Below are positions 11,491 through 55,500 of a stretch of DNA of 64,000 bases, piece after piece. This stretch comes from Amoebophrya sp. A120 (taxonomy: Eukaryota; Protista; Dinoflagellata), in contig CAJINV010000002.1 of assembly GCA_905178155.1 (NCBI GenBank), positions 10,524,709 through 10,588,708 on the forward strand, given 5' to 3'. The position numbers were made by a program, and so were the translations under genes. A model generated the notes under the pieces. It was not told where the DNA came from and did no database searches. It worked only from the letters and a program-made list of their open reading frames with translations. How positions within the stretch are numbered: the first letter of the stretch is position 1; the number at the start of each line of letters is the position of its first letter.

Positions 11491-14400
11491 TCACCGGCCG
11501 ACGCTCAAGATTTCTTCAACCCTCTTGCCGTACAGTGCGGCAAACTGTTCGGACCAGGAGTGACCCAGCCGACCAAACGCCAACGCCAGAACAATGATTT
11601 CGCGGGCTTGCAGCTGCGGCAGCCGCTCCATCGCTTTCATCTCCCACACCTGCAGAAACTTCGTTTGTTTTGAGGACGCAACCTCTCTGCCAATCTTGTC
11701 ACCCTCACCGGAAGCTGGAGATTTCCCCTCATAGTGGTCGCTGGTACCCATAGCACCGTCATCCGCGGAGGGTGCAAACTGTGCGACTGCGGGCGCGGGG
11801 AGTACGACCTCCGCTTGCAGGTCCGCGAGCTGCACAAGGACCTCGACCAGAAACTCCCCCGGGCACTGCTCCATACTGAACAAGCAAGCGGTTTCCCACG
11901 CGTGCAAAAAGGACGCGAGACGGCCAGCGACGGGCCTAGACACGGCGCCATTGGTCGACGTTTTCGTTTTTCGTACGAGGAGCACCTTCACAGACCGCAG
12001 CACGCTCTCGAGCTGCGCGAGCTTGTTCGCGTGCTCTTCTTCGGTTGCCGTGGTGGTCTCGAGCGTGGCCAGGTCCGACGCCAGGTGGTCCAACACTGCG
12101 ACCAGGAATCCATCGCTCGGGATGTGCTGGAGAGAAGCGAACAGTCGCAAGGCTTCGGCGCGCTGACCGAGCAGGTCCGTCGTTGTTGTGGAGATCAACT
12201 TCTGGCCTGTGTCTGTCCGCGGTGCTGTTGTCTCGAGGTCGCCAGATTGTTGTTCGACACCAAAAACTGATCCAGTGCCGCCGAGAACCCCTTCGCAGTG
12301 TACGAGAAAATCGTTTTTGACGACACTTCCCGCTTTGCTTTGCGCATTGTTCCCAGCCGGGGCGCCGCCCCTGAGGCGCTGCCTTGCCTCCAGCAACAGT
12401 CGTTGCCGATTCTGTGTCGCGTTCCAACTGGTCTCCGTGAAGTTATCAAAAGGAAAAATCCCCCCTCCCCATATCGAAACGAAATTTCTGATGCTGGATT
12501 TGCGTACACAAATCAGGTCTCTCTTGCTGGGGATGACTGCAGGCATATATCAAGCCTGGGTCGAGAGGTTTTGACGTAGGGGACTAGCATGACAGACGTC
12601 GGCCCTGTAAGCCCAACAGCATCACAAACCGCCTGCATAATGCGGCGGACTCTCTGGCTTTGCCTTCTTGCAAGACTGACAGGATTTGTGACCTCAAATC
12701 TGCATCACAAATTTGCAGACGAATGCGTTTTCAATATGGGGAGGGGGGATTTTTCCTCACAATAGAAGTCTTTACGACATCGCTGCAGGATTCGCTCCAT
12801 GTGCAGGACAAAGCTCGTGTAGATTTCTAGCAGCGCGAGCAGTTTCTCCGCACAGTGCTGGGCCTCTGACTGTAGTATTTCGTCCTCGAAAGCGAGCGCC
12901 AGCTGCTGCAATTGCTGCAACGCCTCGTCGTCAATCTTCACCTCGCTTTTTCGTCTGGCGTGCTGCTCCTCGGCCGGTATGATCCTGTTCGCGTTAATCT
13001 TATCTAGACCTGATTCTTCTTTTCTCTCTGCTTTTTTCTGACTGGCGTCCTCCCTGTCGTCTTCTTCCTCTAGCTTCAGCAAATGCTCCATGGCCTCCGC
13101 GACTTCAGCAAATCGTTGCCTCCACACGTGGAAGAGCTCGCCCTCGCTTCGTTTCCACATCTCGAGCTCGGCTGACTTCCCACTGTTGACAGCTTGTCTG
13201 CTTTTCGCCCCGGCGCCCGCGCTCCAGAACCGATGAAAAGCAAACACCAAATGCGGAATGCCCGCTGGGTGCAGACCCTGCGTCAGGATGCGCAAAAACT
13301 CTAACTCCATCAGGTCGATGATGTCCGGTGTGAAAAGCGCGAGATCGCACATCACCGAAAGCGCGTACACCGAGTTCGCGAATTGTTCCGGCGACATCAA
13401 CAGAAAGGCCTGCAGGGAACCCGCTTCCTCCGCAGCAGCGGCGTTCTGCTGCTGCATTCGTCTGGTTGCTTCCGTGTGCTGGCGCAGGAGGGTGTGGAAA
13501 TGCCCGACCAGCTTGTTCAAAAAGGGTCTCGATGGTCGCATGCGAAACTTTCGGAAGAGAAACGCCAGCGAAAGCACGCTGTTGGAAAACGCATGGCTGT
13601 CAAAACTTTGCAGAAGAACCTGGGTAGTTCCTGCTGCTGTACCTCCGGGACTCGCTGTGTCGCTCTTGCCTACAGCGCTTGTTTCCGTCGAAAACTCCTG
13701 CAGGATGCGAAGTTGCAGGTCGTTCGCTTCTTGTACAGCACCAGTATTCTCTTCCGCCGTTCTTGGTCCAAGAACTAAAGCCTCCTGCCACTGCTCAAAG
13801 AACGCAGTGCTCGGCCGCACCCCGGTCGTAGCGTAAAGGTGCAGAACATTGGCCAGATCTACGGCAGTGAAGTCGCCCCGGCCCATGCACTTCCCCGCGC
13901 TTTTCTCCCATTCATCGAGGAACCTTGGGCCCAAAATCATCTTTTTGAGTTGCGGCAGGCTGCGGATGTAGTTTGGTGCCACCGGCTGGTCACTAGTACC
14001 GCTCGGCGAATCCTTACTAGGCAGCGACGCCTGCTCGTCCGACAAAGCAGAAATACTGGACGACGTCGCGGCCTGTGCATCCATCAACTTCCCGAGTGCA
14101 GTTTGATTGTTCAAAATTTCTTCCTTCAACAAGTACTGCAGCTTCAACAAGTCCTTGGCGGACAGCGATGGCAGCAAGGGGATGCAACGACTCTGCCAGT
14201 CCTCTATGTAATTGAGAAACGCGGTGAGGCTCTTGCACTCGCACACCTCCGCCAGCCGCGAATCGCGGATGTAGCGACTCGCGTACGCGACGAAAAGCGC
14301 TCTACCGGTCGTGTCCTCTTGGTCACCCGCCCCACTTCGTGGCTTCGCCTCACTTGACGGTCCAAAGCACGACCACGAGGAACCATCATTCTGGCTCGCT

Positions 14401-14915
14401 GTTTCCGCAGCCGCGATGATTGCCTTCTGTTCCTCTGGTGTCAGGGGATCCGGATTCGACGATACTTCCTCGAACCAAGAGTGGTGGACTGAGTCTTCTC
14501 CCTTCAGTCGCTCGGCGAAGATGAACAGCTCCAGTCCGACCGTTTCTTTTTGCACCGTCCCGCTACTGGGGCTTGTTGTTGATGACGAGTGACGCAGGTC
14601 ATTCGCATTGTGATTGTCCTTCAAAAACGCAGGTACGGCGCGATGAAACCCTGCTGCTGCACGACCGCGTTGAAGCTGCACCCAGCTTGTCGCGGCCCGA
14701 TCAGTTCTTTCAGACAGCTGCTTGCGTGCTGAGCAGGTTTCCGCAGGAAAAATAAACGGGGCGATTCGCGGCAAATGAACGGTCGCAGTGTGGAGGCTCC
14801 GCCTTGCATGGTACTCCACAAGTGTTACAGAACGGAAAATTCCTGCTTGTCTTGACTGACGCAGTGACGTGTTCAACAGCCTCGAACGCAGACTTCTGGT
14901 GACCGGTACAAGCAT
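11491..14915 (-). CDS. Helical-repeat (HPR/OPR/FASTK-like) protein with probable mitochondrial transit peptide; 2 exons separated by a non-canonical introner
   Basis: ORFs 12705..14915 and 11491..12546 fuse in frame (RKDF/TETSW) on removal of 326 nt. Repeated motifs FTAVDLANVLHLYA, FDSHAFSNSVLSLA, MSPEQFANSVYALS, LQAREIIVLALAFGRL. R/S/L-rich, acid-poor N-terminus. Confidence 0.65.
12444..12764. mobile_element. Introner/MITE-like element 1 (321 bp), TAT...ATA termini, 5-bp direct repeat GAAGT
   Basis: Perfect 24-bp inverted repeat AGGAAAAATCCCCCCTCCCCATAT starting 7 nt inside each end. GAAGT at 12439-12443 and 12765-12769. Removal restores the frame. Confidence 0.92.
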
Positions 14916-15184
14916 CCTCGACTTTTCTGCATTTTTGCGTCACGTATTAGTAGCCGCCTAGTTAGTTTTGATGGCTGTTCAATCTTCCGAACGACCCAGC
15001 TGTAAGTATGCGCAACAAAGAAACTGCCTGCATCTTTACGCTCGTATGTAAGTCTAGTCTCTTCAGAGCCATCGCCCGCACCAAATCATCAGCTCATGTC
15101 TCTCTGCGGCCTTCTCGTCCTTGCCGTGTCCAGAATTCTCCTTGTTGTGAATTCGGTATGCATGCTGGTGTTCGACGTCATCTC

Positions 15185-20761: not shown

Positions 20762-22032
20762 TTTAACCTCGCTGATTTCCTCCGGACGCGCACTAGGGGC
20801 CTACGCGTCGACGTCGGTAAAGAATGGAAAGAAAGTCGAATTCCCACTTCAGAAAATGAAACCAGAAACGACGGCCTCTCGACTGAAACGTTCGCAATAC
20901 CTTCTTTGAGTTTGACTTTGTTCTTCTAATTGTGCTGTTGTAAGCCTTTCATAGAAAACTACGGAAAACGAGAAGAAATATGAGGTCGACGAAGAATGAA
21001 CGATCAAACGACTCCTGCAGCTGCACACGCTCTAGCCATAGCATCACTATCAAGCGATCTTTCAGCTGCTCCGAAGGTAAAAAGCGAACTACTTAACGGT
21101 TCGTTATCAAGAAGGAAACAAACAGAGGACACATAAACGAATAGAGACGCACGATAAGTATTTACATGTGACACGAAATCAACACTCCTCGTCGATGTTC
21201 TTCAGACGACAACGATGCAACCACAACCCATTCGAATACTGGTCTATTAGTGACCTCAATGACTCTCCCGAATTATCCGCGAAAAAAAAAACGTCAGAAA
21301 TTCGACCAATTCGAGTTTCGAGGAACCAGTGCCGGGATCATCGTCATCGTTGAGGCTATCTGCAAGAGCAAACACTTAGCTGCAGAGACAAAAAAAAAAC
21401 GACCTCGATCATAGAACAATTTCATCCTCTGAGGCCGACAGCAGGTAAACCGCTACATGGAACAAAGAAGAACAACTACAACGACGAGGCAATACTTACC
21501 AGCACACACTCGCATCTGCGTACTCGCGGCGCATCTGGGAGCTCCAAAAGAAATGTTATGTGGTGTAGCCTTTTGCCGAGAGGTAAAGTAGTACTTATGT
21601 CAGTAACAAGTAAATGCAGCTTTGCCGAATTGCAAATTCAGACCGGCACTGGCAGCCCTCCGAGGACGGTGATAGATAATTATGGAAGAACAGCACATGA
21701 ACATGCGAGTAGTTTTCTTTAGATTTATATAGGTCAGCGGAAAACACTACATGCCGATGTATTAATCTTGACATTGCAACCGCAGCTCGTCTTACCCTCT
21801 TCTAGCATCTATTTTAGCACCAAGCTGCAGCTGCACCACTCATTTCTATCTGTACTGTTTTCTCGAACAAACAGACTGGTTTTACTATACTCAGTACGAC
21901 GTCGACGCGCGACCGCGATCAAGAAATCATAACATACGAAGCACGAGGATGCATTCTACCTCGTTCTGCTTCTACTACAGTCAAGATGTGCAAAAGAAGT
22001 TCAATGTGGACCTTGACGAGGCTCGGCCATTA

Positions 22033-24334
22033 TCATGCATCCGTGCCTTGTTTTGCGTTCTCTGCACCGAGCGCTAAGAACTTCTCCTCCTGCTCCATAA
22101 TGAACTGGAAGATTTTCTTGGCTAGCTCGGGTTGGTCCGAGTTCTTGTCTGGATGCCACTTCAACTTCAAAAACTTCATGGTTTTCTTCCGGCTATCCAT
22201 CGCCTCCGTCTTCTGTCTCCGAAAGTCCTGCGCGATGCTCGTGGTGATCCGCAGCACCTCCTCACCCTCGTTCGCCTCGGCCAGAAATTCTGTATCTGGG
22301 TCAATCGTCTCGCTGTTTGACCGCTTCCGCCCGTACGCCTTCCGCGCCCCCTTCGCGTTCCAAGCATTCGCGTTGAATTTCGGCCCGCCCTGCTCTTCCG
22401 CAGAGGACGACCTGCGGTTTTTCTCCGCGTTCATCCGCTGTCGGCCTCTGTCAGCACTGCTGTCGTCTTGCGTCGTTCGCTTTTGCTTCTTCTCCTCGTT
22501 TTCTTGCACCTTCCGCGCATGCTCCTTCGCCCGTCGCTCTTCAAATTCTTTCTCTCTGCGTTTTGCTATATCCTGCACAAAAGTATTGCAATCCAACATG
22601 ATCATAGCGCCACAATTGCGATATACTGCACTAGGCTAGTCTTCCCGTTTACAGTATTAATCATCATGCACTTTTTTTCGTCCTTGTTGACATCAGATGA
22701 ATGCGGTTGCTGTGTAATCCTCGATGGATCGATACTTTTGCAATGCATATCGAAGCTCCTCAAAGGATTCCTTGTCACGGTACGTCGCTCGTTCCTGCTT
22801 CGCACCACCGTTGATTAGATCATCTACCGGATCCTCAGGGGGAATCGTCGCGTTAGTCTCCCCCTTGCGGTACTTGTTCTTCGCTGTTGATTCTTCCTGG
22901 AAGGTCCCCGCAGGCGTGACCACCTTTCCATACGGCCGCTCCGCTTGTCGGCTTTGTTGTGCATCCCGGGCCATCCACAGCTTCCTGGCGAGGTATGCCA
23001 CCGCGGCGAGGCCAACGAAGACGAGGATGACGATCAGCGCGATCATGCCGCCGTCGCCGTCGTCTTCGTCGTCGGCTTCAGTGGCAGGGATTCCCCCGGC
23101 TGTTGGCGCGGGCGTCTTGGCCGTCGGCGTGCTGCCAGTGCCAGTGCCAGTGCCGGTAGTCGCTGTCGCCGCTGTTGTGAAGGTCAGCGTGATGTCGCTG
23201 GCCGGGGGATCGCCGCTTAGGTCCTGTACATCCATACGGTTCACTTCGAATCGGTATTGCGTGCTCGGCAACAAGGCACTGCTCAACGTCCACCAAATCA
23301 CAGTGATCACCCCGCCACCAATCCCGACACGGTTAGACATCGTATTGGTCAACGACTCGCTTTGCACCACCGAGTTTGCGAGGTAGAGTCGGGCAAAACC
23401 GCCAGTTGCCGTCACGCGCTCGTTGAAGGAGACTCGTATGACTAGACCAGTGTTTTGCACGTTGGTCGGATTAGCTGGATCGGGATTGGTCACTGTCCAG
23501 GTCGGTGCGTTGTTACCCACTGTTGGCGTTGGAGTTGGTGTGGGAGATGGCGCTCCTGTTGGAAAAATAAAATGAGCATTAACAGAGCAATGTGTTCATG
23601 GGATCATGGACCCTTTCGCTGCACCCACGCACAGTAATCGTGTGCAGTACGAAAGTGCAGTAATCCTCAGAACCACCTTCAAGCCGCGCATGAATCGCCA
23701 CACAATCACAAACCAAAACCGAGCCCTTGTTTTTCATGTTCATGTCTACGAAGGTAGCGCAAAACACATTAGGCACACCTGGTGATGGCGTCGGTGTGGG
23801 GCTAGGCACCGGAGCAGGAGCTCCACCTCCTACGACGAACTGTTTTGCCGTTTGGTACGTGGAATGGGTCGTAAAAGTGCCATGCGTCTTCCATTCCCCG
23901 CCATCTGCGTAGTTCAGGTGGTATCCCGAGGTGCACACGGTGTTTATCTGCGAAAAGCCCGAATCCACGCAAATATTGTTGTTCAGCTTCACGCAGTTGA
24001 TTTCTAAAGCCGAGGACAGCGTGACGCCAAAGTAAGAATTCGCAGCAGTGTATGGGCCACGGACAGTCGTTGCCTGAGACTCCACGGGGTCCTGCTGAGT
24101 GAGCTGCCCATTAAAGTCCACTTCCGTCATCGGATTGCTGGCCTGCGAGGCGTCGTAAACGGAGCTACTGCAGGCCGTGTCGGTGTACATTGCGAATTGG
24201 CAAAACTTCCACTCCGTCCCGGCAGGATTCAAACACACAAAACGCCACAGCCGTGCGGGGGCGGCGAGTACAGGGCCGGGCAATGCGAGCGAGACCAGAG
24301 CAGGTATGACCACGAACAGCATAGAGATAGGCAT
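22033..24334 (-). CDS. Type I membrane protein: signal peptide, Cys-containing ectodomain, PT linker, Ig-like (Big_5/SbsA-like) domain, TM helix, C-terminal J-domain; exons 24334-23779, 23555-22720, 22572-22033
   Basis: Signal MPISMLFVVIPALVSLALP. Ig-like PTWTVTNP...IRVSFNERV...LLPSTQYRFEV...VQDLSG...LTFTT. TM IALIVILVFVGLAAVAYLA. J-domain LKWHPDKN. One GT-AG intron and one inferred GA-AG intron. Confidence 0.7.
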
Positions 24335-29368: not shown

Positions 29369-30539
29369 CTTCGAGCTGCAACGACTCGTCTTTCCGGTTT
29401 TGTGAAGGTGTTAAAAGATCACTTGTTATTTGTCGTTTTGGTTTTTATCTTGTATCTGTCGTCTGTGGGTGTACAGAAATTGGGGGGACAAAGTGAAAAA
29501 CTCGTGTGACAGACTTAGTTCGACTTCCAGACTGGCATTACAATCTAACAGCGATAATTGAGATTACAATCTAATAGGAAAACCGCTCCTACGCAAAACT
29601 ATTACACTGTTTCTTGAGATAGAACTCTACATCAAGACTGATTGGACAGGAGACAACAGAATCAGATGACTCGCACTCGTTGATGTCCTAGTACTAAGAA
29701 GTAGTTGCTAATCGGTCCAATGTTTGAGAAAAAATTTGGCGGTTACTTCTCTTCAGTATCGCGAGAAAGAAGTGATTTCGAGGGAAACGAATCACGGCTT
29801 CCGTAAAATGTAGCTGCGCACAATCAGTTGGGAATGGTTGCATGTAACCATTGATCATGTTTGCAAACTCCTCCTTCGGTGCTACCAGTTGCCATACAAA
29901 TTTTTATAAAACCAAGATCGCCTTTGTCTTTCGTCATTTCGATCTACATCATATAGAATAGCGAGCTGTTGGGATCCTCGCATTTCTGAGCCTTCTCTTT
30001 AAGCACATGGGTATCAGCGAGTACCGATGAATCTCGTTGAACTCTTCAGCGGATAACAGCACGTACCGACTTTTTAAAGCACCTCGTGTCATAGCCGAAT
30101 GTTTGAATTTTCCAGTGATCGAAAGTTTTCCCGCGTTGTTCGTCCAAAAACGAGTTCACATACCGACTCACTACCTGTTGCGCATGTGTCTGTACATACA
30201 TAGCTGCGCCGCGAAGTTCCGCTTCTTTTTGTGTATCTGCAACATGTACCAAGAGGTAGTACTGTACTGAGCTAGAAATTCAAGGAACAGGTTAATCGCG
30301 ATCATAAATCGCGTCCGAAGAGGAAGTCCGCATCTCGAAAGTGCACGATAGTCAACATGTATCAGGTTTTTCCATCCACCACGAGCGAGCCCACTACAAC
30401 AGGCAGCACATTTTATTCAGTACGTCATAGTTTTGACGCAACGATTCGAAGGACCTGCGAGACCACGATTACGATCACGACCTTAGGCTCGTATCAGATG
30501 AAAATCACAGATCGTGTAAACTTACAAATTTGGGTGGCT

Positions 30540-30615
30540 CACGCGACGAGGCCTCATGATGACCCTGACCATCACGTTGTTCACGAGACGAGGCCTCACG
30601 AGACGAGGCCTCACG
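30540..30615. repeat. Short 15-bp repeat CACGAGACGAGGCCT (two tandem copies plus one variant)
   Basis: Copies at 30582-30596 and 30597-30611. Variant CACGCGACGAGGCCT at 30540-30554. Confidence 0.7.
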
Positions 30616-31005
30616 TCGTTCAAATCGTTTCTTCCTACGCTGCTGAACTCTACGCCTGAACCTGAAGCTGAAGGTCCCCGTGATAGCATTACATTTTGCC
30701 AACACACTAGAGCCTGTTGATGTAACTGAAAACATGGTAGATCGACGTTGTAGCCTCACAGGATAGTCTGCTATCATTCACTGACTCACGCGCATAGAAG
30801 GAGCCATCTCCTGATGCTGGTGCTGCGACTTTGCACTGCACCACAAACATCGTCAATCGAATTCGGATCGTCGACGCATGTTTCTTGCTCTTGCAGCTGC
30901 TCTTCTCCCAAAAATTTATTGCGCGAGATTAAAACATAAGATTGGCAACATCTTCTTGATCTTCTACTAAACTCCTCACATCCACCATAATTGTGTGGCG
31001 CACTA

Positions 31006-34628: not shown

Positions 34629-37463
34629 TCAGGCGTCGGCGCCCGAGCTCGCTGCGGCAGCCGCTTTGGACCAGCGATAGTCACGCCACGCGAGGTACTG
34701 TATGTTATCCAAGCGGTCGGGATCCTTGACCTGGATCCACAGGAGCAGGAGCACCACGAAGAAGCAAATCCCCCCGCACGCGATGAAGGTTCCTCCGATG
34801 ATGACGTTTTTGCTGCCCACCCAGTGTGCGGTTGTCAGCACGACGCGCTTCTTGATATCATGCTCATTCCCGGCCTGCTTTTTCAGATCCAACCGGTGGG
34901 CATAGAAGATGCGGAGCTGTGTGCCCTTCGGGATAGTACTGGTTGGCAGCGTAATCTTGCTATTCAGCTTGCGAAACTGCCAGTAACCCGCGATCCTGAA
35001 GGTAAACATGTTGTTCCCAGTGGTCGTCACCAGCATTTCATTCGTTTCAACATCAAGTATCTATCATCCTGATTAAAGTCCTCCAGCTAATGTTATTTTT
35101 GTGTTCGGATATAACACCAGCTTAGAATCGCGTGCTAGAGGAACTGACTACACCAGTAAGGTCTGGCACGTGCTTCTAACGCTCCGATTATAGTGCTGTA
35201 TGCAGTGATCGCAAAATTTCCTGCAGCCTCAAATTCAACTACATTCCCTGTCTACTTTCCCGCACAACAACATGATGAAAGAAAACAGTGCATACCTCTG
35301 CCAATTGAGCCAGTCCGAGTGCTCCAGCCCCCAGCCAGCGGGGTTCGGGAGCTTTGTGGTGCACGCAATGTTGGTGCCGGGCGTCAGCGGGTTAGGCACA
35401 CTGGTGGTGCTGTACTGGCAGGTCGCGCCGTTCGTTGCTGCCTCAAACTGGAAGTCCTTGTAGTTTGCGCAGTTCGGCGTTTTGTTGTCTGCCAGGTACT
35501 GCAGGGGCTGCAGCCGGAGCGGGTCGTCACTACAGACCGTGGGCGGGAAGTGGCGGAGCAGGTGCATGTCCAGAATCTTGTAGAACTCCTTGCCGTCCAA
35601 GTTGTTCACCAGGTCGAGCCCCGACAGGTCCTTGTCCTCGACCTGGTCCTTGGCCTTGTCGAATACCCGTTCCGGGTCGAGATTCCGCTTGGCGTAGGAA
35701 AAATCCGCGTCAAACGCGACGGTTTCCGGCTTGGCGTCCGCCGTGCCGAGCGGGACACTGTTCCCCGCCACGGAGGCGTCCGGGACGGTCAGAACCATGG
35801 TGTCGAGCCCGTCCTCGGTTGCCATCTTGGCCGCGATATGGATGCGTCAGGTTTGAAATCGTCAAAGTTGAAATAGATTTGTAATGCATAAAATGGATAC
35901 CAGTTGTAACACAGTTTCTAAGTGGCGCATGACAAATTTGGGTAGAGCCGAGACCCAGTTTGTCATGCTGTTTGGGTAAGGAAGACGCGTTTTGTCATGC
36001 TATTTTAGCAGCTTAGTTGCTACCCCTATACAGGCTTACAATCTGCCTCACTTGCCTACTCTGCAAGACAAGCACTTTGTGGGCTGCATTTTATGCATGG
36101 CAAATCATTTCAACTTTGACGATTTCAATTCTGACACGCCCATACGCGAACCCGCAGGGGTAGTACACGCGGTTGTCGGTGACCGGCGGCGGCCATTGCC
36201 CGCTCGGCCCGGACTTGCACACGCTGCTCTCGTCGTTGTTGCCGTCCTTGATGCACTGCTTCGACAAGCTGCTCCACCACATGTAGCACCCGCTGGAGTC
36301 CTTGGACAGCTCAAACGGGTACCACAGCGCGTACGCAGCGGACTCCCACGACTCGGTGCCCAGCATGAACACGGCGTTGGATTCTGCGACGCAATCCGTC
36401 CGCGGTTTCTGGTACGCCATGCAAGATCCCGTCCGCACTTGCTTCGCGGACATCGCGTTCTCGGACCCACGTATAAAGCCCCTGTGTCCCTGGTAAACGC
36501 CATCGAGCTCGTAATACCTGTTCAGTGTTGTATATTTGTTCACATGATCACACGTCTTCCGGGTTGAGCTCGCTGCTTGTGCTTCTTCTTTCCGGTGTGA
36601 ACTAGTCATGCGTGCTCAACATCCTGATCTGACAATTTCGATCTGTCGCTTTCGGTTAGTCTAGCTACAGTGCCACCTTGTGTTGACTTCGTTTCCGCAT
36701 TTTTGACGATCATATAGAAATCTCGACTATTTCAGTAGTACTCAACCAGCGGTTCATTACAGTAGCAGCGGGCCCTCCATATCTTCCGTGGTCGTGAAGG
36801 TGATGCTTTCGAGCATCCTGGCTGTGCCCAAGGTGGCGGAGGTGCTGTCTACGCACGTCCGCTGAACATTTTCGGCACCGTCCACCGTGGTCTCGACGTC
36901 GTTATTGCCGTAGTCGTCACACCCAATATTGGGCTTTAGCTCGATGGAAATCTCGGTTATTCCCGCGGCGCCAGAGAAGTAAAGGGAGCCGAAAATCAGC
37001 ATCGTCAGTGTGTAGAAAACGAAAATGACCAGCAGCGTCTTGGGGGTGCACAGCGGGGCCCAGTTCCAGGGTTGCGCCTTACCTTTTTCCGAGAGTTTTT
37101 TGGTGGAAACCTTGCCCATACCCTCGGCAAGGATCACGCTCGCCGTTTTGCTCTTGCGCCCGTTCTATCAACTGTAAAAGTGTCTGGGTCTGGAAGAATT
37201 CATGTTTGTCATGCTTGTCTGGCATGACTCTTACATCTGTCATGCACGTTACCCAAGAGCTCCGTTTTTCTGTGATGCAGAAGCGCGGTTTGTCATGCAG
37301 AATAGGCAACACCTAGGAGCTCAGAAACTTGTCATGCTGAGCCAGCATTTGTAGCCTCATCATGAGACGCCACCCAGCATCACAAGTTTCCAGACCCAGA
37401 CATTTTTACTTTTGATACGTTCAAGACGGCGGAGCTCGGGATGGAAGACGAAGCGGATGCCAT
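34629..37463 (-). CDS. CDC50/LEM3 family (P4-ATPase flippase beta subunit); 5 exons, two introns are introners
   Basis: N-terminal TM, MEGPLLLYYELDGVYQGHR, YYPCGFAAKM, WLNWQRIAGYWQFRKL, KRVVLTTAHWVGSKN plus TM. Introns 37418-37165 (or 37162), 36760-36518, 36145-35833, 35295-34996. Confidence 0.92.
35837..36144. mobile_element. Introner/MITE-like element 2 (308 bp), about 55-bp imperfect TIR, 5-bp direct repeat CGCGA
   Basis: Left TATGGATGCGTCAGGTTTGAAATCGTCAAAGTTGAAAT; right end reverse-complemented TATGGGCGTGTCAGAATTGAAATCGTCAAAGTTGAAAT. CGCGA at 35832-35836 and 36145-36149. Confidence 0.92.
37166..37417. mobile_element. Introner/MITE-like element 3 (252 bp, family A), 30-bp TIR, 5-bp direct repeat CGTTC
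   Basis: TATCAACTGTAAAAGTGTCTGGGTCTGGAA ... TTCCAGACCCAGACATTTTTACTTTTGATA. CGTTC at 37161-37165 and 37418-37422. Homologous to 53020-53270. Confidence 0.95.
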
Positions 37464-39171
37464 TTTCGTGGGGACCCCCTGGTCCTTGTCACACGTCACG
37501 GATTCCGCTGGAACAACCTGCATGAAAGAGCATAAAATGGTTGCAGGTCAAGATGTTGTAAAATAAAAATTTTCCCTCTACTAAACCGATTCGCTTCATC
37601 AGATGGCTGCACTACACTGGTACAAAAGCAATGGGATAAAAATTGTGTTTAGAACAGGGAGGTACTGTACGGCGGCCGTGCGACAGGTCGCGGAATCGGA
37701 ACGTTGTGGTGACTCCAGCTATCCAACAAAAAAAGTGCGCCAATGCACTTCAATGTAAAAGTAAACGTGTCGTGAAGAAGATGCATTAGACGCTCACTCT
37801 CAGTGTGAGGGATATATGTCCCGTACTATTGTTTCCGCATCACAAGTTTTCTGTAGTACGGGTTATATGCTCGTTGTACATACAAGCGTGTGCAGTAGCG
37901 CACTCTTTTCCTTGGATACTCTCTCGTCTCCGAGTAGCAGCAATCTGCTGCTGCAGTTCTTGCCCGAGAAAAGAACCGGGTGAACAAGCTCGTCCACAGG
38001 AAGAACCGAGGCAGTGGCAGCTTTCTCAGCACCGGTAATTCTGTCAGATTTTTCCAGCTCCGCGCAGTGTAGTCGACCCATCCGAACGGGTGGAATTACA
38101 AGATAGCAGCTGGACGGAGCCCTGCCCAAATCTCCGACGCGCTGCAACGACAGCAGCTACACCGATGACACACGAAGATTCTTGCAATGTCATCATTATG
38201 AAAATCGTATCCAAATCGTGAACCTCTATTGGCACAAAAATGGAGACTTCCTTCACATATTTCTTATTCATTCCGAAAAAAAAACTGCAGATAATACGAA
38301 GAATGTCGGCACCTTAGAACCACTCTATTCTGAATGTGCTGCGGCAGAGACTACAGACGCAGACACTCGCTTCTATTCAGAAAAACAGATGAAAAAAGGC
38401 CTTGCACGTGAAACGCAAAGGCACGTCCCTGCTCATCTCACACAAAAACGACAGACCAAACGAATCAAATGCGTCGTGGAGTCAACGAAAACCAAAAAAA
38501 AAGCAACAACGCATTAATAAATAAGCATGCGCGCAATTGCGCTGGTGATAGCGCCACACATACTGCTTTGTGCGTTTGGACACACTAGACACCAGTGGGG
38601 TAAACGCAAACCTATGTGTAATCACCCATGCGATAATAAAAAAACACAATACTACACTGCAGCGAGATGAAGGTCAGGAGGGTGGATCGCGATCGCCTCC
38701 CCTTCATTTAATGGAGAATAAGAGCATCTTGAAAAATAAGGCACCGCGCAGTTGTTTCCTTGAGTTCGTTCCGGTTCGAGATAAGAAGTTGTTGGTCTGA
38801 TACAATTTTATGTACCGCGATCGTAGGTGTATTAAGCACTTTTCCTCGGTGTAGTCGATACAGGTCTATCTGTGCTCCCTCTCTTCAGCGTGGAAAATGT
38901 AATAAATCGGTATGATGACGATTCCATCTATCATAAAGAATGACATACCGTGACCATTTCCATGATTATTATTTCGAAATTCTCCAAAATCTATTGTCCA
39001 TATTTATTAGATGACCTTTAGCCATCTGCTTCTCCGCGGCAGTGATGCCAAGAAACTACATGGTTTCGCTTTTCAATGTTCCACACTTGTGTAAGTAAAG
39101 TATTTCTTGAACCGCACGCATGATACCGAACAAGGAAGTACATTTCTGCACGTCGTCTACTTGATCTTTTT

Positions 39172-41567
39172 TCACTTTGCCTTCCGCACGTTGAGCATAC
39201 TCCCACTGAGACCCGCGTCTCCGATGGTCGTGTCCAGTCCGATGTCCTTCCTGGCGGACTTTGGTGGCATTGCAGTGAAGAGGTCCACGCTCTCGATTCC
39301 CATTTTAGAAAGATGCGCGGCGGCCTGCAATGCGTGCGACACCGGATCCGTTTTCAAAAACAGCACGGGGTCGGACCGCTTGCCGTCCAATAGGCGGAAG
39401 GACATTTTTGCCAACGTGGCCGGATCCGTGCCCGCCGCCGGGGCGGGTGGCATCGCGGGTACATCTTCCTCCGCTGCGGCCGCTTGCTCTGCTGTGGTCT
39501 CGCCGGTGGAGCCGAATGCCGCGGTGCTGCTACTCGCCCCCGTTTCGCCGCCCTGCGTGAGACCCCCGGCGGACCGCGGCCTCTTGCTCATCGGCTCGTC
39601 CCCGTGCGCCGGCCGGGAGCCCCCGCTAGTACCACCGGTCAGGTCAATGGTCCCGCCCCCGCTCGCGGCAGCCAGGTCGCCGGTCCCGTTTGCACCGGAC
39701 GTAGAGGTCGCGCCTGTCGCGGAAGAGGAGGAAGAAACCGCCCGGGAGCTGGAGCCCGGCTGCTGCGGCCTCAGCTTGTCGGCATGTTTCTCAAGGAAGG
39801 CAGTGATCTTCTCCATCGCCACCACAGACGAGTTCTTCGGGTTGTGCGGGTCCATCCACTTTTTGCCCTCCCAGAACTCCACGGCCATTCGCGTGCGCGG
39901 ATCCACAAAACAAATGTACGGCAGCGATTTCACGTTGTAGTACCTGAGATGAGTAAGAGTCGATTTCAAAAAATTGCAGACGAAAACGTAGTTACGACGC
40001 GGTCTATAATCTCTATGAATGTAGACAACTACGCGACCTCGTTTGTTCGTTACAGCTACGACTGCGCACGAGCATATGGTGCAAAAGGATGAGGATAAAG
40101 AGGGAGGAAGATGACTTTTAACAAAGTGCAGAAATACTGCGAGAAAGTGCTCCCCTGTTCGGACACGTCATCGCGCTGCCAGAAGACGAAATTCGATGTC
40201 ACCGTATCCTTCACAAGTTCGTGAAAATATCACGAAGAAAAGCGCCAGCGCATTCATGGAACTAATCAATGCGGTACAAATGAAAAACCCACTTGGAAAT
40301 TTTGGCACGCAAGACCGTAGCATGTTACTTCTGTTCATGTCGTGATTAGTATCTTTTGTGTATTGGTTTTTAGTTTCACATTGCAAATAGGTTGAATGCA
40401 CGCTTTTTTTCTCTATGATAGGTTCCAAACGTCTCGATTCAACTGGCTACTGGGAAATTCCTGGTCCTGAATGTTCACCAGAATATACTTGTTCTCCTCC
40501 ATAGCGCGCGTGTGCGCGATCGCAAATGCCCCGGACTGTAATGGTATTGAATTAAATGCCTTTATTTCATACAATATAGATGTCGACCGTTGCAGTGGTC
40601 ACACAGAAAATAAAACGTCGAGTAGTTGAGCTACTGCTTCAATATCTAGGTGACAGCGGTAATCTTTCCACCGCCACCGGATGAACCAAAGATGCAACTA
40701 TAAGCACAAATACAACAAACCTCGTTGTAATCAGGCACTTGGAATATCTTGTTGAGATGCTTCACTCTGTCGTTCGCTTCAGTCGCGGCTCCCTGTTTTT
40801 TATCCTTGCTTGCATCCCACCACGCGGACCGCTGCAGGTACTTTCTGTGATCTTCCTGCAGCTGCTTTTCTTGCGCTCTGTTAGTGGAAATGAAATTTTT
40901 AGGTGTCGATGTTGACACAGTAAAGATACAGGTGTATCTTGCCGACGTGTAAAAACACAAACTAGTAGTGTGATCTAGCCCACTTCTCCACGACGCCGTC
41001 ATCAATGGGGACAGGGCGCAGTAGAAGTACTGCTTCCTTGTCATCGAACAAAACATGAAATCAAATAGGATCTTTTTCTTTTATACTTTTTCTCGCTTGC
41101 CGACGGGCCCTGAATCATTTGGTCATCAAAGGCCGCGATGGCAGCGCGGACCTCTTCATCGATGGGCGCCGCGCCCGTGTCGCCGCCGCCCGGCGGAGGC
41201 CGCCCGCTCCCGTCCGGCCCGGCGCCGCCGGTGGATGCTGCATTGGGCATGTTGTCCAGGTTATCCCAGAGAAAAAAGCTGGCAGGGCATATTTGTAATG
41301 CAAAAATAGATACACAGAAAAATCTGTCATGGGCGGCCTCCTAGCATGCTGCTTCGGATATGCAGTACAGATTTTTTTGTGTATTTATTTTTGCATCACA
41401 AATATGCCCTGCCAGCTTTTTTCTGTGTGATACAGGTACAGTGCGACGGCGGTCTCCAGATCCCACACCTGTCCGGACATCTCGAGAAAATGCCGCGCTT
41501 GCATCATGTCTTCGCACCCGGTGGTGCTCATGAAGGTCGCGATCGTAAGCTGCTCCTCGTCCGACAT
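39172..41567 (-). CDS. UBX-domain protein (UBA-like + UAS/thioredoxin-like + UBX; UBXN7/Ubx5-like p97 adaptor); 6 exons
   Basis: UBA-like ARHFLEMSGQVWDLETAVALYLDN. UAS KYILVNIQDQEFPSSQLNRDVWNHELVKDTVTSNFVFWQ...LPYICFVDPRT. UBX MSFRLLDGKR...LFTAMPPK...TIGDAGLSGS. The ORF is open upstream to 42509, so the start is uncertain. Confidence 0.9.
40228..40420. mobile_element. Degenerate introner element 4 (193 bp), TATCA...TGATA termini, direct repeat decayed
   Basis: Left TATCACGAAGAAAAGCGCCAGCGCATTCA; right end reverse-complemented TATCATAGAGAAAAAAAGCGTGCATTCA. Flanks GAAAA and GGTTC. Interrupts the conserved UAS motif with an in-frame TAG. Confidence 0.75.
41262..41432. mobile_element. Introner/MITE-like element 5 (171 bp), about 66-bp TIR, 5-bp direct repeat CAGGT
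   Basis: TATCCCAGAGAAAAAAGCTGGCAGGGCATATTTGTAATGCAAAAATAGATACACAGAAAAATCTGT and its near-perfect inverse. CAGGT at 41257-41261 and 41433-41437. Confidence 0.95.
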
Positions 41568-44463: not shown

Positions 44464-47400
44464 CTACTGATCGTCTGCTCTTGCAGGTGCTTCCCTGTGT
44501 TCGGAGGAAGTCGAAGTTGCTGATACTGTGCTGGTGGGAGGTGTGATGAAGTCCAAGATAACAGAGTCTCGCACCCACGTGTCGCCCAAGTCCGCCCGGC
44601 GCAGGTTTGGGTGCCGCTCCCGGAACATTTCCTTGAGCAGGGATGCCACCTCGTCCTCCTGGTCAGCCCCAAATCGCGCCAGCTGCTGCTCTGAGGGCTT
44701 GCGGAACCCCTGGAAGGGGTTTGGGGAAACCCGCAGATGCAGCTCCTCGAGGTGCCTGGACACCAGCACTTCGTTGAGGAACTCCAGGGATTTTTCGTAG
44801 TGCCACTGTGTTTGCGCGTCCAGGTCACGAGCGAAGTACATCCGCGACAAAAGCCTGTGGTCCGCAGGTTGCAGCCAATCCGTTTCCTGCACGCCGAGGA
44901 GCTCTAACACCTTCAGCTTCCGCATTTTCGCAAGTCCTGCTGCGAAGTTCCGCGTCCGGCGGCGACGCGTGCACGCCCAAAGATCCAAGTGGAGCCGCAC
45001 TAGTCGGCTCGGGAGCACTAGGAAGTCAAAAACAAAGGGATCTTCCTCTTCCCCGACGTCCAATGTTGCTTGATCCCCTTCCTGCTCCCGTCGTTCAAGA
45101 ACTGCCGTCGCGGTGGTCGCAGTGCCAGTACTGGATGTGACAGCATGATTACTTGCGGAGGCGATGTCGTCGAGGAAAGAAGAAGCGTGAAACTCGTCCC
45201 TACTTTCATTATCCGATGCCTGCTCTTCTTCTGATGCGAAAACCTGCGGGCCGCGACCATCGGCGAGATTCAAAAAATGTGCGCCGGCGTTGTAGAAGGA
45301 CCCGATTTTACCCGAAGGCGCGAGGTAGTTCAGCTGAGTCTCTGGGACGACCAAGAGACGATCTTCATCAGCATCCCGAGGACCGCATGCGTCATGGACG
45401 CGTAGGTCTTGTTCCTCAAGCAAACGAAGGCCGTGGTCCTCCACCTCCTCCACGGCTGGGACGTTTATTGTGTTCGGGTCTTGCCACATGTGCGTCAACA
45501 ACGGGCTGTTCGGCGAAAAATCCGTACGCAGTGTCGGACCCATCTCCTCCCGGCGTGCATCACTGCTTAAAGAGCCCGTAATGCTGACACGAAGTTCGCT
45601 CAGGTGCGCAAACGATTTCAAAAACCGCAGCGAGTAGTCATCAACCGTGTGCAGGTGCAGGGTGACCAAATTCGGCATTCTTTCCGAGTTCACAAAGCCT
45701 TCCGCGCCCGAGTTGGTCGAAAACTTCAGGAAGTTCAGGTGTGGCAACTCGACTTTGTGTAGAGCGGATACGAGAGTTGCAACAGATCGTCTTGTAGAAG
45801 TACCACAACCACGACCTACTGCCGAACTATAAACGGGCCCTTCGAAGCGGAGCTTCGCCCTTTCGAGCGGGATGGGCCTCATGCCCATGCGCTGGATGCT
45901 GACCAGAAAAATTTCCAGGTGTTCCAGTTGCGGCGGAAAAAGTTGCTGCAGCCGGTCCGGGAGGAACCGCGGGTTACTGTTCAAGCTTTGGAGCAGTTCC
46001 TGGTGATGATGTTTCTCTCTTTCATTCGAAGCTGAGGACGAGATGACATCGTCGTTCATCATACCCCCTGCCCTCCTTTCCCGGGGAACTTCAACTTTTC
46101 CAGCTGCAGCATCACGCGAAGAAAACAACAGACCAACATTCTTCAGACTGAGCTTCTGCAGCTTGGGAAAAAGCAGTGTCGGAAAGAAGCCGCTACGCTT
46201 ACTCGCGTCGCTTGGGACGACATGATCGTGACCTCCACCAGCCTCGATTTTGGGTAGAATCGCAGTACAGTGTACTAGCGTCAAACGTCTCAGGTTCGGC
46301 AAAAGCGATGCCACAAAGTCCAATTCCACTTCTGCGTCCGCAAAGGGACCCACCCAATCTTGGCAGTTTATGTACAACTCGATGACGTGCCGCGGCACGC
46401 GCTCGTACAGGAAACGGGACAGAGACGTGGGGCACCGTGCGCGCGCCAGCACGCTGGCGTAGTCGTGCCGGTGCCATTGGAAGCAAGAATCCGCGCAGCT
46501 CAGTCGGGGGAAAACGTCGTCCTCGTTGAAAAAGTATCCTGTGCAAAAGTATCGTACTCGTATTGTAATCATGCATTACAAATCCTGTTCTTAACGCAAA
46601 TTAGCATTACAAATCTTATTTTTCATGCTGAGGAAATTTGTAATGCATTTATACGAGTATGTACGATACTTTTGCAATTCATAAAAAGCTGTGCCTATTC
46701 TCCCACTGCTGGTGGACTTTCGAGGTCGATGCTTTACCGAAGGAGCTCTCGGCACTGCTGTTCAGGTTGTGTTCTTTCTCCTCGAGTCGGCTGTACTGCA
46801 CATCGGCCGTGCTGGCGTCGTTTGACGAACACGCTTCTGTACCTTGATCATCCTCGCAGGCGTGGCCCGAAACTGCACAATTACTGCATACTTCTCGACC
46901 TTCTGGTTGGCTGACCGGTGCAGCCGATGAGGAAGAAGACGCTCCACTTGTCGTCGCAAATGTTGAGCCCCCCCGACAGCGGGATTTAGAGCCGCATCGA
47001 GTGCAGCGCTGCTGCGCGGAATCGCAACCATCGGCACATGAGAGATGCGAAGACAACGTGCTTGCCTTGGATGCAGTGCGCTTCATCCCTGCGGGACGAG
47101 TGCTGAATATGGCTTTCAACATCGACGGGCTTCGGGCGCCCCAGAAAATCCGCACGGACTGCGCCGCGTCGTCCAAATAACATTTTACCTTCGGACAGCT
47201 GGCGCGCAAGCGGTTCCGGTAGTGTTCGTTCGTATCCGACACCGAGCACGTATCGGAAAAAAACCCTTGCTCGCGTACGACACCCAGCGCAGATGCGAAC
47301 AGCAGGCGCTGTTGCGATGATGTTTTCGTTTCTTCATTGTCAGGCTCTACCGCAGCTGTGCGTTCGTTCCGCACGGGAGTTGAAAGCGGTAAACTGCCCC

Positions 47401-47506: not shown

Positions 47507-48033
47507 TTTGCAACAGAAGTTACTCACACGTGCTACTTAAGCCGTTTCCAATGAAACAATAAAGTTCGAGTGTAACGACTGAACGAAAACAAAACATCGA
47601 AACGAGCTTCCTTCCGTGTTGGGAGAAATGAAAATAACAACATGTATCTGTTCTGTGTGCTCGCCCCTAGTACTCATCAAGATGAAAAAGAAAAAAAGAG
47701 AACGAAAAACCATCTGTGGTGTTGCTGGACCACGCCCACGCGGAGAGTAGGTCATACCACGCACCGGGGACAAGGGCTCACGTCACTGTCCAACACAGTA
47801 GTGGTGGATGTAAGTATCTGATCTTCTTACATCTGAAAAACATAAGCATTGAGATTGACAGGCTCTCCATGCACACAGAATTGATCGTGTTGACGTGCCA
47901 CGTTGAAAGGAACAAGCACGCTTTTTACAGCATGCATCACCGAACACGTTTGCAAACATTCTTCATTCTCCTATGTTTGACAAGCCATAGCACATCAGAA
48001 CTGTTTCACTTCTTGAGGCTCGCCGCATTCTGA

Positions 48034-51810: not shown

Positions 51811-52513
51811 TAAATCTGAATGTCAAAAAATATAGTACATCAAGTGTTTTCTCATGTGGTCCCCAAGCGATGTTTTCCTCGCGCTCGGTGTGGTAAGCGA
51901 ATGTTGCTTCATCAGCGGCAAGTACGGAGTCAGAGATTTATGAACAATTTTTCGGAGAAGCAAAAAATTTCCCTTCCGTACGTAGCTTGCTATCGTAAAA
52001 CAAAAAGGCTCTAGTACATACCGATGTACTCAAGAAAAGCAGTAGTGCTCGGAATGCATGAAGCCAGAAACTGGATGCGCCGCGACCGCAAGTTGGGCTC
52101 TGCGATTCATTGGCATTCTTTCGTGTATACATTTCAGCCTATGTTTTTCGGTTTTCTCTTGTCACGGTAAAGAGCTGGATCGTCGTAGATAGGTCTCTTA
52201 CATATCATGCAATTGTTACTTTCCACATTCCAAAACTGCAACTGCTAAAGTACAGGTGTTGTATCGTGATCGTCAACTTCTGTGTAGCTTTTTCAAGAAA
52301 AACGGTACTGTACATTAATTTGGGCAAGACCACGTAACAAACTCGAAATCTGTAAGTAGGTTTTGATATGTTCTGTCTGTGAAACTAAATCAAAAGGATA
52401 AAAGCCAAATTGAAACATGAATGAAGCTGATTCCGTCTAGGGAAAATGATCTTGCTCGGCATACATCTGAATGAACAAAGACGAACGAAACAATTTGACC
52501 CGCAATCTCCTTT

Positions 52514-55500
52514 TTACACGTCTGCGGGAGAAACGTTCTTCGTGACCACCACCGGCGCAGAAGTAATGACGACTTTCTGGGGCCCCGGCGGCATGCTTGC
52601 CGCACCGTAGTTGTTGTACATGCCCTCGGGGCCAAACCCCTGGTCGTCTTCGAAATAGGGCTCGGGATCTTCCGCGACATGTCGGTTCTGCCGGATCACG
52701 TAAGAAACCCCAATCGCACAGCAGCAGACGCAGCAACACAAAATCAGGGGTAGAACCACGTACACAACCAGCCACTTGCCGCAAATCTGCAGGGTAGTAG
52801 ATTTGAATTTGGTTCTGATCCAGAACGATGCTTCCGCGAAATTGAAATATCTTTGCACAGGCGTGTCACGCTTTCGGAACCGGATGTCTTTCTAGAATAA
52901 AGCCACAAAATAACAATACCGTCTGGTCCGAGAGCTGGATTTGTTGTCGGCAACCCTGGACGTTGGCATCGGTCAACGCCGCTGTGGTGGTGCCGCCGCC
53001 CCGGGATTCGTCGCCCTTGTATCAATTGTAAAAATGTCTGGGTCTGGAAGAATGCAAGTTTGTCATGCTTGTCTGGCATGACTTGAGAATCTGTGTTGCA
53101 TAGGCACGAAAAGGCCCTCTGAACTGTCATGCAAAAACGCAGTTTGCCATGCGGAATACGTAAGACATGGGAGCCAAAAAACTTATCATGCATAGCTGCG
53201 TATTGCAGTCCGTCTACCATTCACTTTTAGCATCACAAGTTTCCAGACCCAGACATTTTTGCATTTGATACCTTGAACCAGTCAACGATCAAGACGGTTG
53301 GTCGTCTCTGCACCGCTAGCACGTCCTCAAGTGCTTCTGTTGTGACTCGTTTTCGGAAACTGGTGAAGTCTTCGCCCTTTACTTTTTCGGTGCGACGCCG
53401 GCGGGCCACGTTTACGGACGTCGGTCGAAAGGCAGAGTGCACGAACGCGCTGGAAGATGCGTCCTCGCCACCTCCCACTTCTTTCGAGTCAAGACGACCC
53501 GCCAAAGACGTCGCAGTGGTTCTCCGACCGCCGGTCTTTCTGCGGCCTGGCTGGGTTGCATTCGCTTGGTTCAGCGCGCCCCGAAGCACCGCGTCCTGTC
53601 CCTGGTCGATTTGGCCAATCATGTACGCATCTCCCGAGGACAATAAATCGTATTCGAAAATGGGCACCGTGATCATATTTTCGACTGTATTTCCACGATG
53701 AAACACTGTGCCACCGATTTTCACGAGCTCCCCGCCTGCATCTGTGTACGGGTTGTAACCCGGGTGTGCATTTGCGTTCTGCGCCAGAGTGATGGGCGCG
53801 TGCGCCCGCATGCATTCGCCAAGCATCCCCGCGTTCTCGCTGATCCGTGTCCCGCGCATGAGCGCCCCGCCCGTCTGCTCTTTCAGGTACAGCTGGTGCG
53901 TTTGCGGATCGTGAGCCCAAAAGGCGACGCGCTCACAGCCCACAAGCTCCTTCGCCACCGAACAGATGACCGGTAGAATGTCATCGTGATATGCTCTACC
54001 CTCGTGCGTGGTCACTTCCTCTAGCGCGTGGATCATGGCAAAGGTCACGCCCTCCAACACGCGTTTGGCTCTCCGCGCGTTCCAGGCATCCCACTCCTGC
54101 GACAGACTTTTGGTCATGGCCCACAAGGAATCCACGCAACGGTCGACGTCAATCTCCAGTTCCTTCATTCGCTCGCGAGACGACAACGCCGAAGTTCTTG
54201 GATCTACTGATGTAGCTGCGTCACCGAGGAATTTTCTTGCGTACGCCTCGAGCGACAAGCCGTCAGTTGTAGATATCACTACCATGCCCATGGCGGCCAA
54301 ACTGGTGAACGCCTTGCGTGCGGGTGGCGTCTTCAAGGGAAAGGCCATCCGTGTGGACTCCAATACGGGCTCGTTAGCGGCCAGCGCTTGCAGGCCAAAC
54401 TGAAACCACGGATCGTTCGCCGCCGTGCAGAGCATGCGATCGCTTTGGGATATCCGTCGCGGTTCCGCTGCCTTCGGTGCGGCCAAAACCCCGGACTTAC
54501 GGGTGGTCACGGACTGTCCGCTAAAGTAGTCCCGAAAGTCGAAGGTGTCTCTGCTGCCCACCATGCGAAGCGTGGTGCGGACCAGCAATCTCCGCTTCTG
54601 CACCTGGTCCCAGGCCTTCTGCAGACCTCTCTGCCCTCGGGGCGAGCGTTGACTCGTCGTATCACGGGCGGTCGGCTCGGCGGAGCTTTCCTGGCGCTCT
54701 AGTTCAGTGGTACCCGCAGACGAGCGCGTTCCATCGTGGGATTCCGATCGAAGACGCGCGGCGGCCACCACGGACGCCCGATACACTGCCGTATGCAGCA
54801 TATCAATGCCGGCCAGCCGGTCCTTGTCCTTGGCGTGCGACAGCATGGCTTCGGAGCTTCTCTTCACGTCCGCTCTATTCGTATTATCTGTAGCAGCGAC
54901 CTCTTCATCGGCGTAGTAATGGAAGTCGTCGTGCTGCTCCCTTAGCGCTGGCGCGTCAGCAGCCTCGTGGAGCCGCGCCGAGTGGGCCCGAATGGTCAAC
55001 GGATCGAATCGCAACGCCTTGTTCGGAAGATAATGCTGCACCGCGTCCGCAAGCACATTCTGCACATTTCCAGCTGATTCACCCGCTCGTGAGTAAAACC
55101 TTCGGCGTTCCTCCCGGTTCAGCGCCCGGGCGTAACGACAGATTGGGTCCGCCTCGTGCAAAATTTTCGCCGTGTGCCAGGCATGCGCCGCGCGTGCGTC
55201 CAACTGGATTACGTGGTCTACAGCGGAGGTGGCTGAATTTTTGCTACTTCTCGAACTGGGCTGGAAGAGCATTCGCCGCTTGTTTTCCGCGTTTTTGGAA
55301 AACCTCGGCTCATTTGTTCCACCAAATCCCAGCACTTGCTGGCGGTGCCGCTCCAAGCGCTCGTCTTCGGAAGCAATCTCAGCCGATATGGCTTTCGCGT
55401 AGTTCTGCTGGTTACCCTGAGCATTGATGCGCGAAGCGCTGCTCTGAGCAACTCCACCAGCTGCAGCGACGATGTGACTGGAGGACCCCACCGAATGCCG

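Follow-up and report, generated by a model that had tools for sequence, protein, structure and literature searches.

Exonic TAT…ATA inverted-repeat elements of Amoebophrya sp. A120 as non-canonical introns, and what may mobilise and remove them

How do genes stay translatable when transposon-like elements lie inside their exons? The question is raised by a 64,000-nt stretch of the dinoflagellate Amoebophrya sp. A120 (contig CAJINV010000002.1, positions 10,524,709 to 10,588,708; hereafter the window, on whose full length all features are numbered), in which non-coding elements that begin with TAT and end with ATA interrupt genes that are all encoded on the minus strand. An initial annotation, made from the letters alone, had listed seven such elements and proposed that they act as non-canonical introns of the introner class reported from Amoebophrya. 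From the analyses below we are highly confident that the elements are A120-type introners that are removed in vivo from RNA.

Elements, reading frames and transcripts

The seven annotated elements were all recovered with exact coordinates, TAT starts, ATA ends and terminal inverted repeats (TIRs). Six are flanked by a perfect 5-bp repeat, taken as a target site duplication (TSD), and 40228-40420 has none (elements are named below by their first position). Every member of that list is thus real, but the list was incomplete, having missed 22569-22749 and 37720-37918, both with decayed TSDs; with these two added, six of nine window elements have an exact 5-bp TSD. A scan for TAT…ATA pairs with an arm match of at least 17/24 gave 8 hits in the window, against 0-3 in 20 shuffles; one of the hits is an inner pair inside 41262, and 40228 falls below the cut-off. 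Both ends consist of TAT, seven loose bases and at least three A in all elements except 35837 (8/9), and each of the eight elements folded forms a long closed terminal stem. None has coding capacity. Very high summed depth over five of them in sequencing run X5 indicates that they are repeated in the genome, and blastn found matches in 157 related loci (described below) for five of eight elements, with none for 37720, 40228 and 41262. Two lone element-like left ends, at 21274 and 29757 (17/20 and 18/20 matches to known ends), have no partner that we could find and may be decayed elements or chance.

Retention of an element introduces stops in every sense frame in eight of the nine cases. The ninth, 40228, leaves a single open frame (ORF, open reading frame, 40168-40446) that is not the coding frame, so that the coding frame is broken by retention in 9/9. 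When element plus 5 nt was deleted in silico, each of the five host genes tested regained a long ORF, in agreement with what had been proposed. For 22569-22749 this removal gives the longest open frame, 309 aa, compared with 198 aa at +4 and 179 aa at +6. Read on the sense (minus) strand, 53020 alone offers an exact GT…AG register; such a register is absent from the other six of the seven annotated elements, not from five as first counted, and their assignment to a non-GT-AG class holds. Frame-preserving GT…AG pairs that would alter the protein lie within 30 nt of all eight elements checked, and no observed junction uses such pairs.

Transcript evidence comes from four contig sets, X1-X4, of one sample with unrecorded library type, which we judge to be RNA because their contigs skip seven GT-AG introns. 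Between 34600 and 54400 they contain 14 joints, comprising six exact skips of an element plus 5 nt (Table 1), the seven GT-AG introns, and one joint inside an element seen in a single run. Element plus 5 nt is thus removed at all seven covered elements, namely at the six joints and at one loose end; 12444 and 22569 lie outside the contig cover. The loose end belongs to 53020 and occurs in two of the four runs (X1, X2), where the transcript resumes just after the second TSD copy, with the next 15 nt of the genome.

Excision at the DNA level, limited to certain cells or life stages, with transcripts arising from empty alleles, would place the same joints in RNA, and both the TIR ends and a geometry that leaves one TSD copy behind would suit a transposase. 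This was examined with X5, a DNA-like run with a flat depth of about 27-36 outside the elements. At five elements its unitigs continue without a break from the flank into the element, and a single contig of 3897 nt covers both 37720 and 40228 in full; X5 therefore contains no abundant empty allele among the joints listed, with the reservation that contigs drop rare variants. We regard DNA excision as extremely unlikely, and of the two levels that the initial annotation had left open, RNA or DNA, the data point to RNA.

Two runs of raw RNA reads, X8 and X9, matched element interiors only and yielded no junctions. The reads (613 in X9 and 95 in X8, under the same species label) have unmatched flanks and represent close relatives of 41328-41364 and 53020-53051 in different surroundings, with most reads of each run coming from a single locus. 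Element-containing RNA is thus to some extent retained or transcribed.

Downstream of 53020 the X1 and X2 transcript departs from the genome at 53276-53303, where its 15 matching nucleotides give way to at least 255 nt that are absent from the window and from the 157 loci. The 904-aa ORF at 53233-55947 has no cover beyond about 53770, and an X5 contig starts at 53303, not inside the arm. The break could reflect a very long non-canonical intron, trans-splicing or a rearrangement.

Table 1. Elements, host gene and canonical introns of the window, with the transcript joints found for them
Feature	Position	Strand	Evidence
Introner element, 321 nt, perfect 5-bp TSD	12444..12764	minus	ORF restored in silico, 1040 codons stop-to-stop; no RNA contig cover
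Introner element, 181 nt, decayed TSD (2/5 match)	22569..22749	minus	Added to first reading; no RNA contig cover
CDC50/LEM3 host gene, interrupted within this span by three elements and three GT-AG introns	34629..37918	minus	Pfam PF03381; A120 protein P0003
Introner element, 308 nt, perfect TSD, CDC50 gene	35837..36144	minus	Joint 35831>36145, skip 313 = 308+5, 4/4 runs, one sample
Introner element, 252 nt, perfect TSD, CDC50 gene	37166..37417	minus	Joint 37160>37418, skip 257
Introner element, 199 nt, decayed TSD, 5' part of CDC50 transcript	37720..37918	minus	Joint 37714>37919, skip 204, 1-nt ambiguity
Introner element, 193 nt, decayed TSD	40228..40420	minus	Joint 40222>40421, skip 198, 1-nt ambiguity
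Introner element, 171 nt, perfect TSD, 66-nt arms, same gene as 40228	41262..41432	minus	Joint 41256>41433, skip 176
Introner element, 149 nt, perfect TSD	46535..46683	minus	Joint 46528>46683, skip 154
Introner element, 251 nt, perfect TSD, exact GT…AG register at -1/+4	53020..53270	minus	Loose end at 53019 in X1, X2
Seven RNA-supported GT-AG introns	34996-35295, 36518-36760, 37518-37670, 39944-40137, 40536-40720, 40878-41086, 52787-52919	minus	Contig joints

Related copies and the position of the cut

Related copies were analyzed in 157 loci, which are contigs of one public assembly (JACKZZ01) that may or may not be of the window's strain. These loci, about 0.4 Mb, were picked by the TIR pattern of one family from 13 of the 64 parts of the collection and do not overlap the window flanks. 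Elements were called at an arm match of at least 17/24, by which old copies are under-counted. The 292 distinct elements include 227 with an exact 5-bp repeat and none with an exact 4- or 6-bp repeat, and shuffled flanks gave exact 5-bp repeats in 1.1 cases on average and 4 at most. The TAT-N7-AAA signature stands at 391 of 454 element ends. Since the 227 exact TSDs comprise 178 distinct sequences, the target sequence is free. Orientation could be assigned to 142 of 243 scored copies. In 112 oriented copies G occupies position -1 in 40, no different from the background of 0.32, and the preference for G seen in the window (5/8) is gone; AG at +3/+4 occurs in 9 copies where 9.4 are expected. Any GT…AG register is available in only 7 of the 112, so that a U2-type GT or GC donor with an AG acceptor does not describe the class.

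Element lengths are spread evenly over the three residues modulo 3 (107/98/87). When frames were called independently on each side of an element, they nevertheless required removal of the element +5 modulo 3 in 83 of 84 copies with calls over 150 nt, 82 of 88 over 120 nt and 86 of 93 over 90 nt (about 200 copies entered at each size, 196 at 150 nt, and the remainder were uncallable). Mismatches between TSD copies were counted in 30 imperfect copies and fall on positions a to e in 14, 10, 8, 12 and 8 cases; three of these copies were inner mis-calls and were then dropped. Single mismatches are synonymous in 15 of 21 copies, a set chosen for clear coding signal, whereas a fixed cut predicts a share of 0.38-0.46 (p 0.004-0.017 at 0.40-0.46). 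The preserved register of the frames and the synonymous bias of the TSD changes imply that selection acts on the spliced product.

These results also bear on whether the junctions are real. A hairpin combined with a short direct repeat is the published signature of 'falsitrons', joints made by template switching of reverse transcriptase while the true mRNAs keep the sequence, and our transcript data consist of contigs from a single sample of unrecorded library type. However, 37720 and 40228 are removed at +5 with only 1 nt of homology at the joint, whereas the CD19 artefact disappeared once its repeat was broken; retention breaks the ORF in every window case, and the register and synonymous bias of the related copies tell against an artefact. 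With two elements removed at one common joint base and with selection on the spliced frame, such an origin is very unlikely.

Where, then, does the cut fall? A perfect repeat leaves six equivalent registers. The decayed TSDs of 37720 and 40228 allow only two on the sense strand, 0/+5 or -1/+4. In-frame GT…AG pairs at -1/+1 are bypassed in 37166 (skip 257, not 254) and in 37720 (204, not 201); these transcripts are cut three bases beyond an in-frame AG, and the 3' site is therefore not the first AG. In the -1 register the intron begins N-TAT, and four of the seven canonical introns of the window start with GTAT. In the available parts of Farhat 2021 (PMC7789003; published work is cited here from partial texts throughout), Table S4 gives an NT donor for all nine predominant non-canonical pairs of A120, and Amoebophrya A25 has TT donors with inverted repeats that start TTA. 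On this view U+2 and A+3 would be retained and G+1 lost in A120 and A25 alike, although placement by the aligner could contribute to this pattern. On these grounds we favour -1/+4 over 0/+5.

Two approaches to narrowing the register further were discarded. All three decayed window elements match in the fifth TSD base, but a requirement for this match is not supported in the loci, where the base is mismatched in 5 of 27 imperfect copies. Stop codons were uninformative, as no register creates a stop at the junction in the 27 copies.

The synonymous excess raises another reading of the cut, in which micro-homology between the TSD copies guides removal by strand transfer or copy choice in vivo and the position floats within the repeat. 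The 15/21 synonymous changes stand against 0.24-0.30 if only the free intronic copy mutates, besides the fixed-cut prediction given above, both decayed elements with RNA data join where their copies still have a common base, and Farhat 2021 (PMC7789003) calls the sites variable in the portion available. Yet the sample is small and selected, one common base is little homology, 37720, whose copies agree at two positions, yields a single joint, and the fifth base is mismatched in five imperfect copies. We therefore consider a floating cut improbable.

Mobilisation and removal of the elements

Of 261 elements in 27 TIR groups, 259 contain the motif GCATNAC, which occurs one to seven times per element and at 14.3 per kb in elements as compared with 0.42 per kb elsewhere in the window. 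As the 27 groups have the TAT end, the 5-bp TSD and this motif in common, one mobilising enzyme is suggested, which supports the earlier proposal of several families of miniature inverted-repeat transposable elements (MITEs) served by one machinery. The features expected of MITEs are present: TIRs, a TSD of constant length, no coding capacity and many copies. Transposase binding is our preferred role for GCATNAC; use as a branch point (U-N-A-C) was rejected, the motif being equally placed on both strands. Pairing between the arms is weakest at positions 4-10 (46-90%) and reaches 71-97% at positions 11-28.

The loosely paired 7 nt after TAT (positions 4-10) take a small common set of variants across unrelated TIR groups. 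This suggests either exchange of ends or a degenerate site of enzyme contact.

The enzyme is likely an integrase-related DDE transposase. The initial annotation knew of no mobilising enzyme; a candidate is, however, already in print, since family 38 of Gozashti 2025 (PMC12130899) has LTR-integrase-like (long terminal repeat) ORFs between its TIRs. In the part of that source available, the family is tabulated as Ginger with '5-bp TSD, TA/TA Termini', and the text states that Ginger's expected ends are absent. The Ginger/Tdd elements of Bao 2010 (PMC2836005, in part) likewise have TIRs, and TDD-4 and TDD-5 also make 5-bp TSDs; they differ in their TGTNR termini, where ours are TAT, and in the 4-bp, sequence-biased TSDs of Ginger1 and most of Ginger2. 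Because true Gingers end in TGT, we do not file the elements as Ginger, their behaviour being that of Ginger/Tdd-like MITEs; an integrase-type transposase remains the likely enzyme class.

Long copies, which had been suggested as a place to look for a transposase, do exist: four in the loci, of 457-1104 nt, have perfect TSDs and strong TIRs. Only one of their ORFs was scanned, the 238-aa ORF of locus L022, without a Pfam match, and no transposase was found among the ORFs scanned. The element in question, L022 95-1198, is a 1104-nt TAT…ATA copy with a perfect TSD and a GC-rich, internally repetitive core; it is possibly a deletion derivative of a longer element. The 904-aa ORF mentioned above was considered as a transposase within a long element and set aside, its only match being a weak one to GAF.

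Taking mobilisation and removal together, we hold with evenly balanced confidence that an integrase-related DDE transposase mobilises the A120-type introners and a relaxed U2-type spliceosome removes them. A single transposase would recognise the common TAT ends together with the subterminal GCATNAC motifs and insert the element with a 5-bp stagger into almost any sequence, in either orientation. For removal, the length and two candidate registers are observed and the enzyme is inferred. Positions +2 to +4 of a host GUAU-type donor, whose +1 is free, would come from the TAT of the element itself, and a stem of 20-30 bp would keep the ends together and place the 3' cut four bases downstream of AUA, with no need of AG. 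Symmetric ends would explain splicing in both orientations without any splice-site sequence recruited from the target. Since bases equal in number to one TSD copy remain after the cut, the host protein is restored without a scar. According to the available part of Farhat 2021 (PMC7789003), A120 retains U2, U4, U5 and U6 together with 83 of the 89 proteins of the spliceosome, U1 not having been found; the modified U2 spliceosome of Fritillaria borealis, treated below, offers a precedent by analogy. A spliceosomal step is also favoured by the GTAT and NT donors and by the weak arm pairing at positions 4-10.

Several points weigh against this account. Both G+1 and AG are dispensable, including the AGs bypassed in 37166 and 37720. 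Sense and antisense are not distinguished by stem mismatches (G·U 69 vs A·C 67), folding energy (62/132) or motif position, and there is therefore no sign of a branch point or of selection on RNA-level pairing; the structure-guided route put forward by the initial annotation is plausible but gains no independent support from this comparison. The donor would be buried in the stem, and the synonymous TSD mismatches hint that the cut may float. The register rests on two elements in one sample, in which 0/+5 fits equally well, and Farhat's NT donors may come from aligner placement. A transposase was not found in 82 of the 186 long ORFs of the loci (those scanned) or in 23 window ORFs, and the available part of Farhat 2021 (PMC7789003) found none in A120. 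A crude window-wide GC-step proxy for donors proved to be noise and did not single out GTAT.

The same elements might instead be removed in vivo by a machine independent of the spliceosome, along the lines proposed for the nonconventional introns of euglenids: an endonuclease would recognise the terminal stem and cleave at constant offsets, and a ligase would then connect the exons. Such a route needs no GT, AG or strand-specific signal and would account for the bypassed AG. It is in keeping with the long stems of all eight folded elements, with a 3' overhang that at -1/+4 is 3 nt longer than the 5' one, much like the Euglena N3 and N5-6 spacers, and with the missing U1 of A120 (in the same partial source). 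On the other side, a spliceosomal donor is indicated by the NT donors and by the resemblance to GUAU, the stems show no preference for G·U over A·C, the layout of direct and inverted repeats recurs in about 15% of canonical A120 introns (again from partial text), a continuum that Euglena is said to lack, and there is no candidate enzyme. We give this a lower probability than the spliceosome, as a tentative alternative. A120 would then possess a second splicing pathway, convergent with the euglenid machine, that needs no GT, AG or particular target and reads the TAT…ATA stem at a fixed offset equal to the 5-bp stagger; this too we put forward only tentatively. If it were true, an insertion in any orientation would be erased from the mRNA scar-free.

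Relation to known systems and further features of the window

Because the elements carry the A120 signature, a host exon matches an A120 protein at 100% and the lengths fall into published classes, this is a known class in a known genome. The introners that Farhat 2021 (PMC7789003) described from A120 have 3-5 nt direct repeats and inverted repeats of TAT, seven loose bases and at least three A, among 29,850 repeated introns. They agree with ours in the TAT-N7-AAA start, 5-bp repeats, length of about 240 nt, RNA-supported junctions and many families, under the same organism label and, in the part of the paper available, with nothing different in kind. That part leaves the border position unassigned and rules out general mobilisation by transposase, whereas we find two registers, a uniform 5-bp TSD and a motif that crosses families. 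The TIR families listed for A120 in Gozashti 2025 (PMC12130899), with lengths of 149, 209, 252, 305 and 317 bp, equal the length classes found here; the comparison used 41 of the 58 A120 rows of dataset file 8 and matched length, not sequence. The automated 'co-opt' splice-site calls of that work do not fit the free TSD.

Farther afield, euglenid nonconventional introns (Nomura 2025, PMC12501133; review PMC11282704, both in part) are alike in their MITE-like origin, terminal stem, lack of GT-AG and longer 3' spacer. They follow the code N3CDG…CH'GN5-6|R and give circular products (PMC12501133), where ours have TAT…ATA ends and a strict 5-bp TSD. Fritillaria borealis (Soo 2026, PMC13326754; review PMC11282704, both in part) has transposon introns with TIRs and TSDs and without GT-AG, spliced by its modified U2 spliceosome; it keeps preferred AG-AC and AG-AT pairs and U1 (PMC13326754), in contrast to the free acceptor and the U1 not found here. 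The introners of Symbiodinium and Polarella (Roy preprint 10.1101/2020.10.14.339549, in part) are likewise TIR elements of dinoflagellates, and one copy of their TSD stays behind when they are spliced out, but they recruit GH/AG dinucleotides from a constrained TSD, which is unconstrained in our elements.

In the open-licence literature no paper turned up that establishes where the non-canonical introns of Amoebophrya are cut or which enzyme removes them; Farhat's logos and U6 alignment and the 17 of 58 Gozashti rows outside the comparison could show a register. Within the same literature the limit to two registers, the bypassed AGs, the free TSD and the cross-family motif were not found in print. 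These points sharpen the question of mechanism without answering it. An N-UAU donor predicts which bases matter, and elements with decayed TSDs can reveal the register. Either mechanism bears on how far splice sites can relax and on the tolerance of some 30,000 exonic insertions, by the count in the available part of Farhat 2021.

The host genes are of several kinds. The last CDC50 exon has as its sole match Amoebophrya sp. A120 protein P0003, 100% over the query exon, and the annotated protein already lacks all three CDC50 elements, 37720 included. The conserved motifs named in the initial annotation fared unequally: CDC50 was confirmed by PF03381, and the UBA/UAS label given to the other gene found no Pfam match in the two exon pieces scanned. 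This gene, host of 40228 and 41262, is putatively of UBX type. The host ORF of 22569-22749 ends in what is presumably a DnaJ-like HPD motif.

An Rfam scan of the window and a scan of viral contigs returned nothing, a homologue search with 56894-58174 returned only itself, and 16 of 23 scanned window ORFs are without a Pfam match. Every long ORF examined between 1 and 64000 lies on the minus strand, forming one unidirectional gene block, and a short cluster of repeats with a 15-nt period occupies non-coding DNA at 30534-30616.

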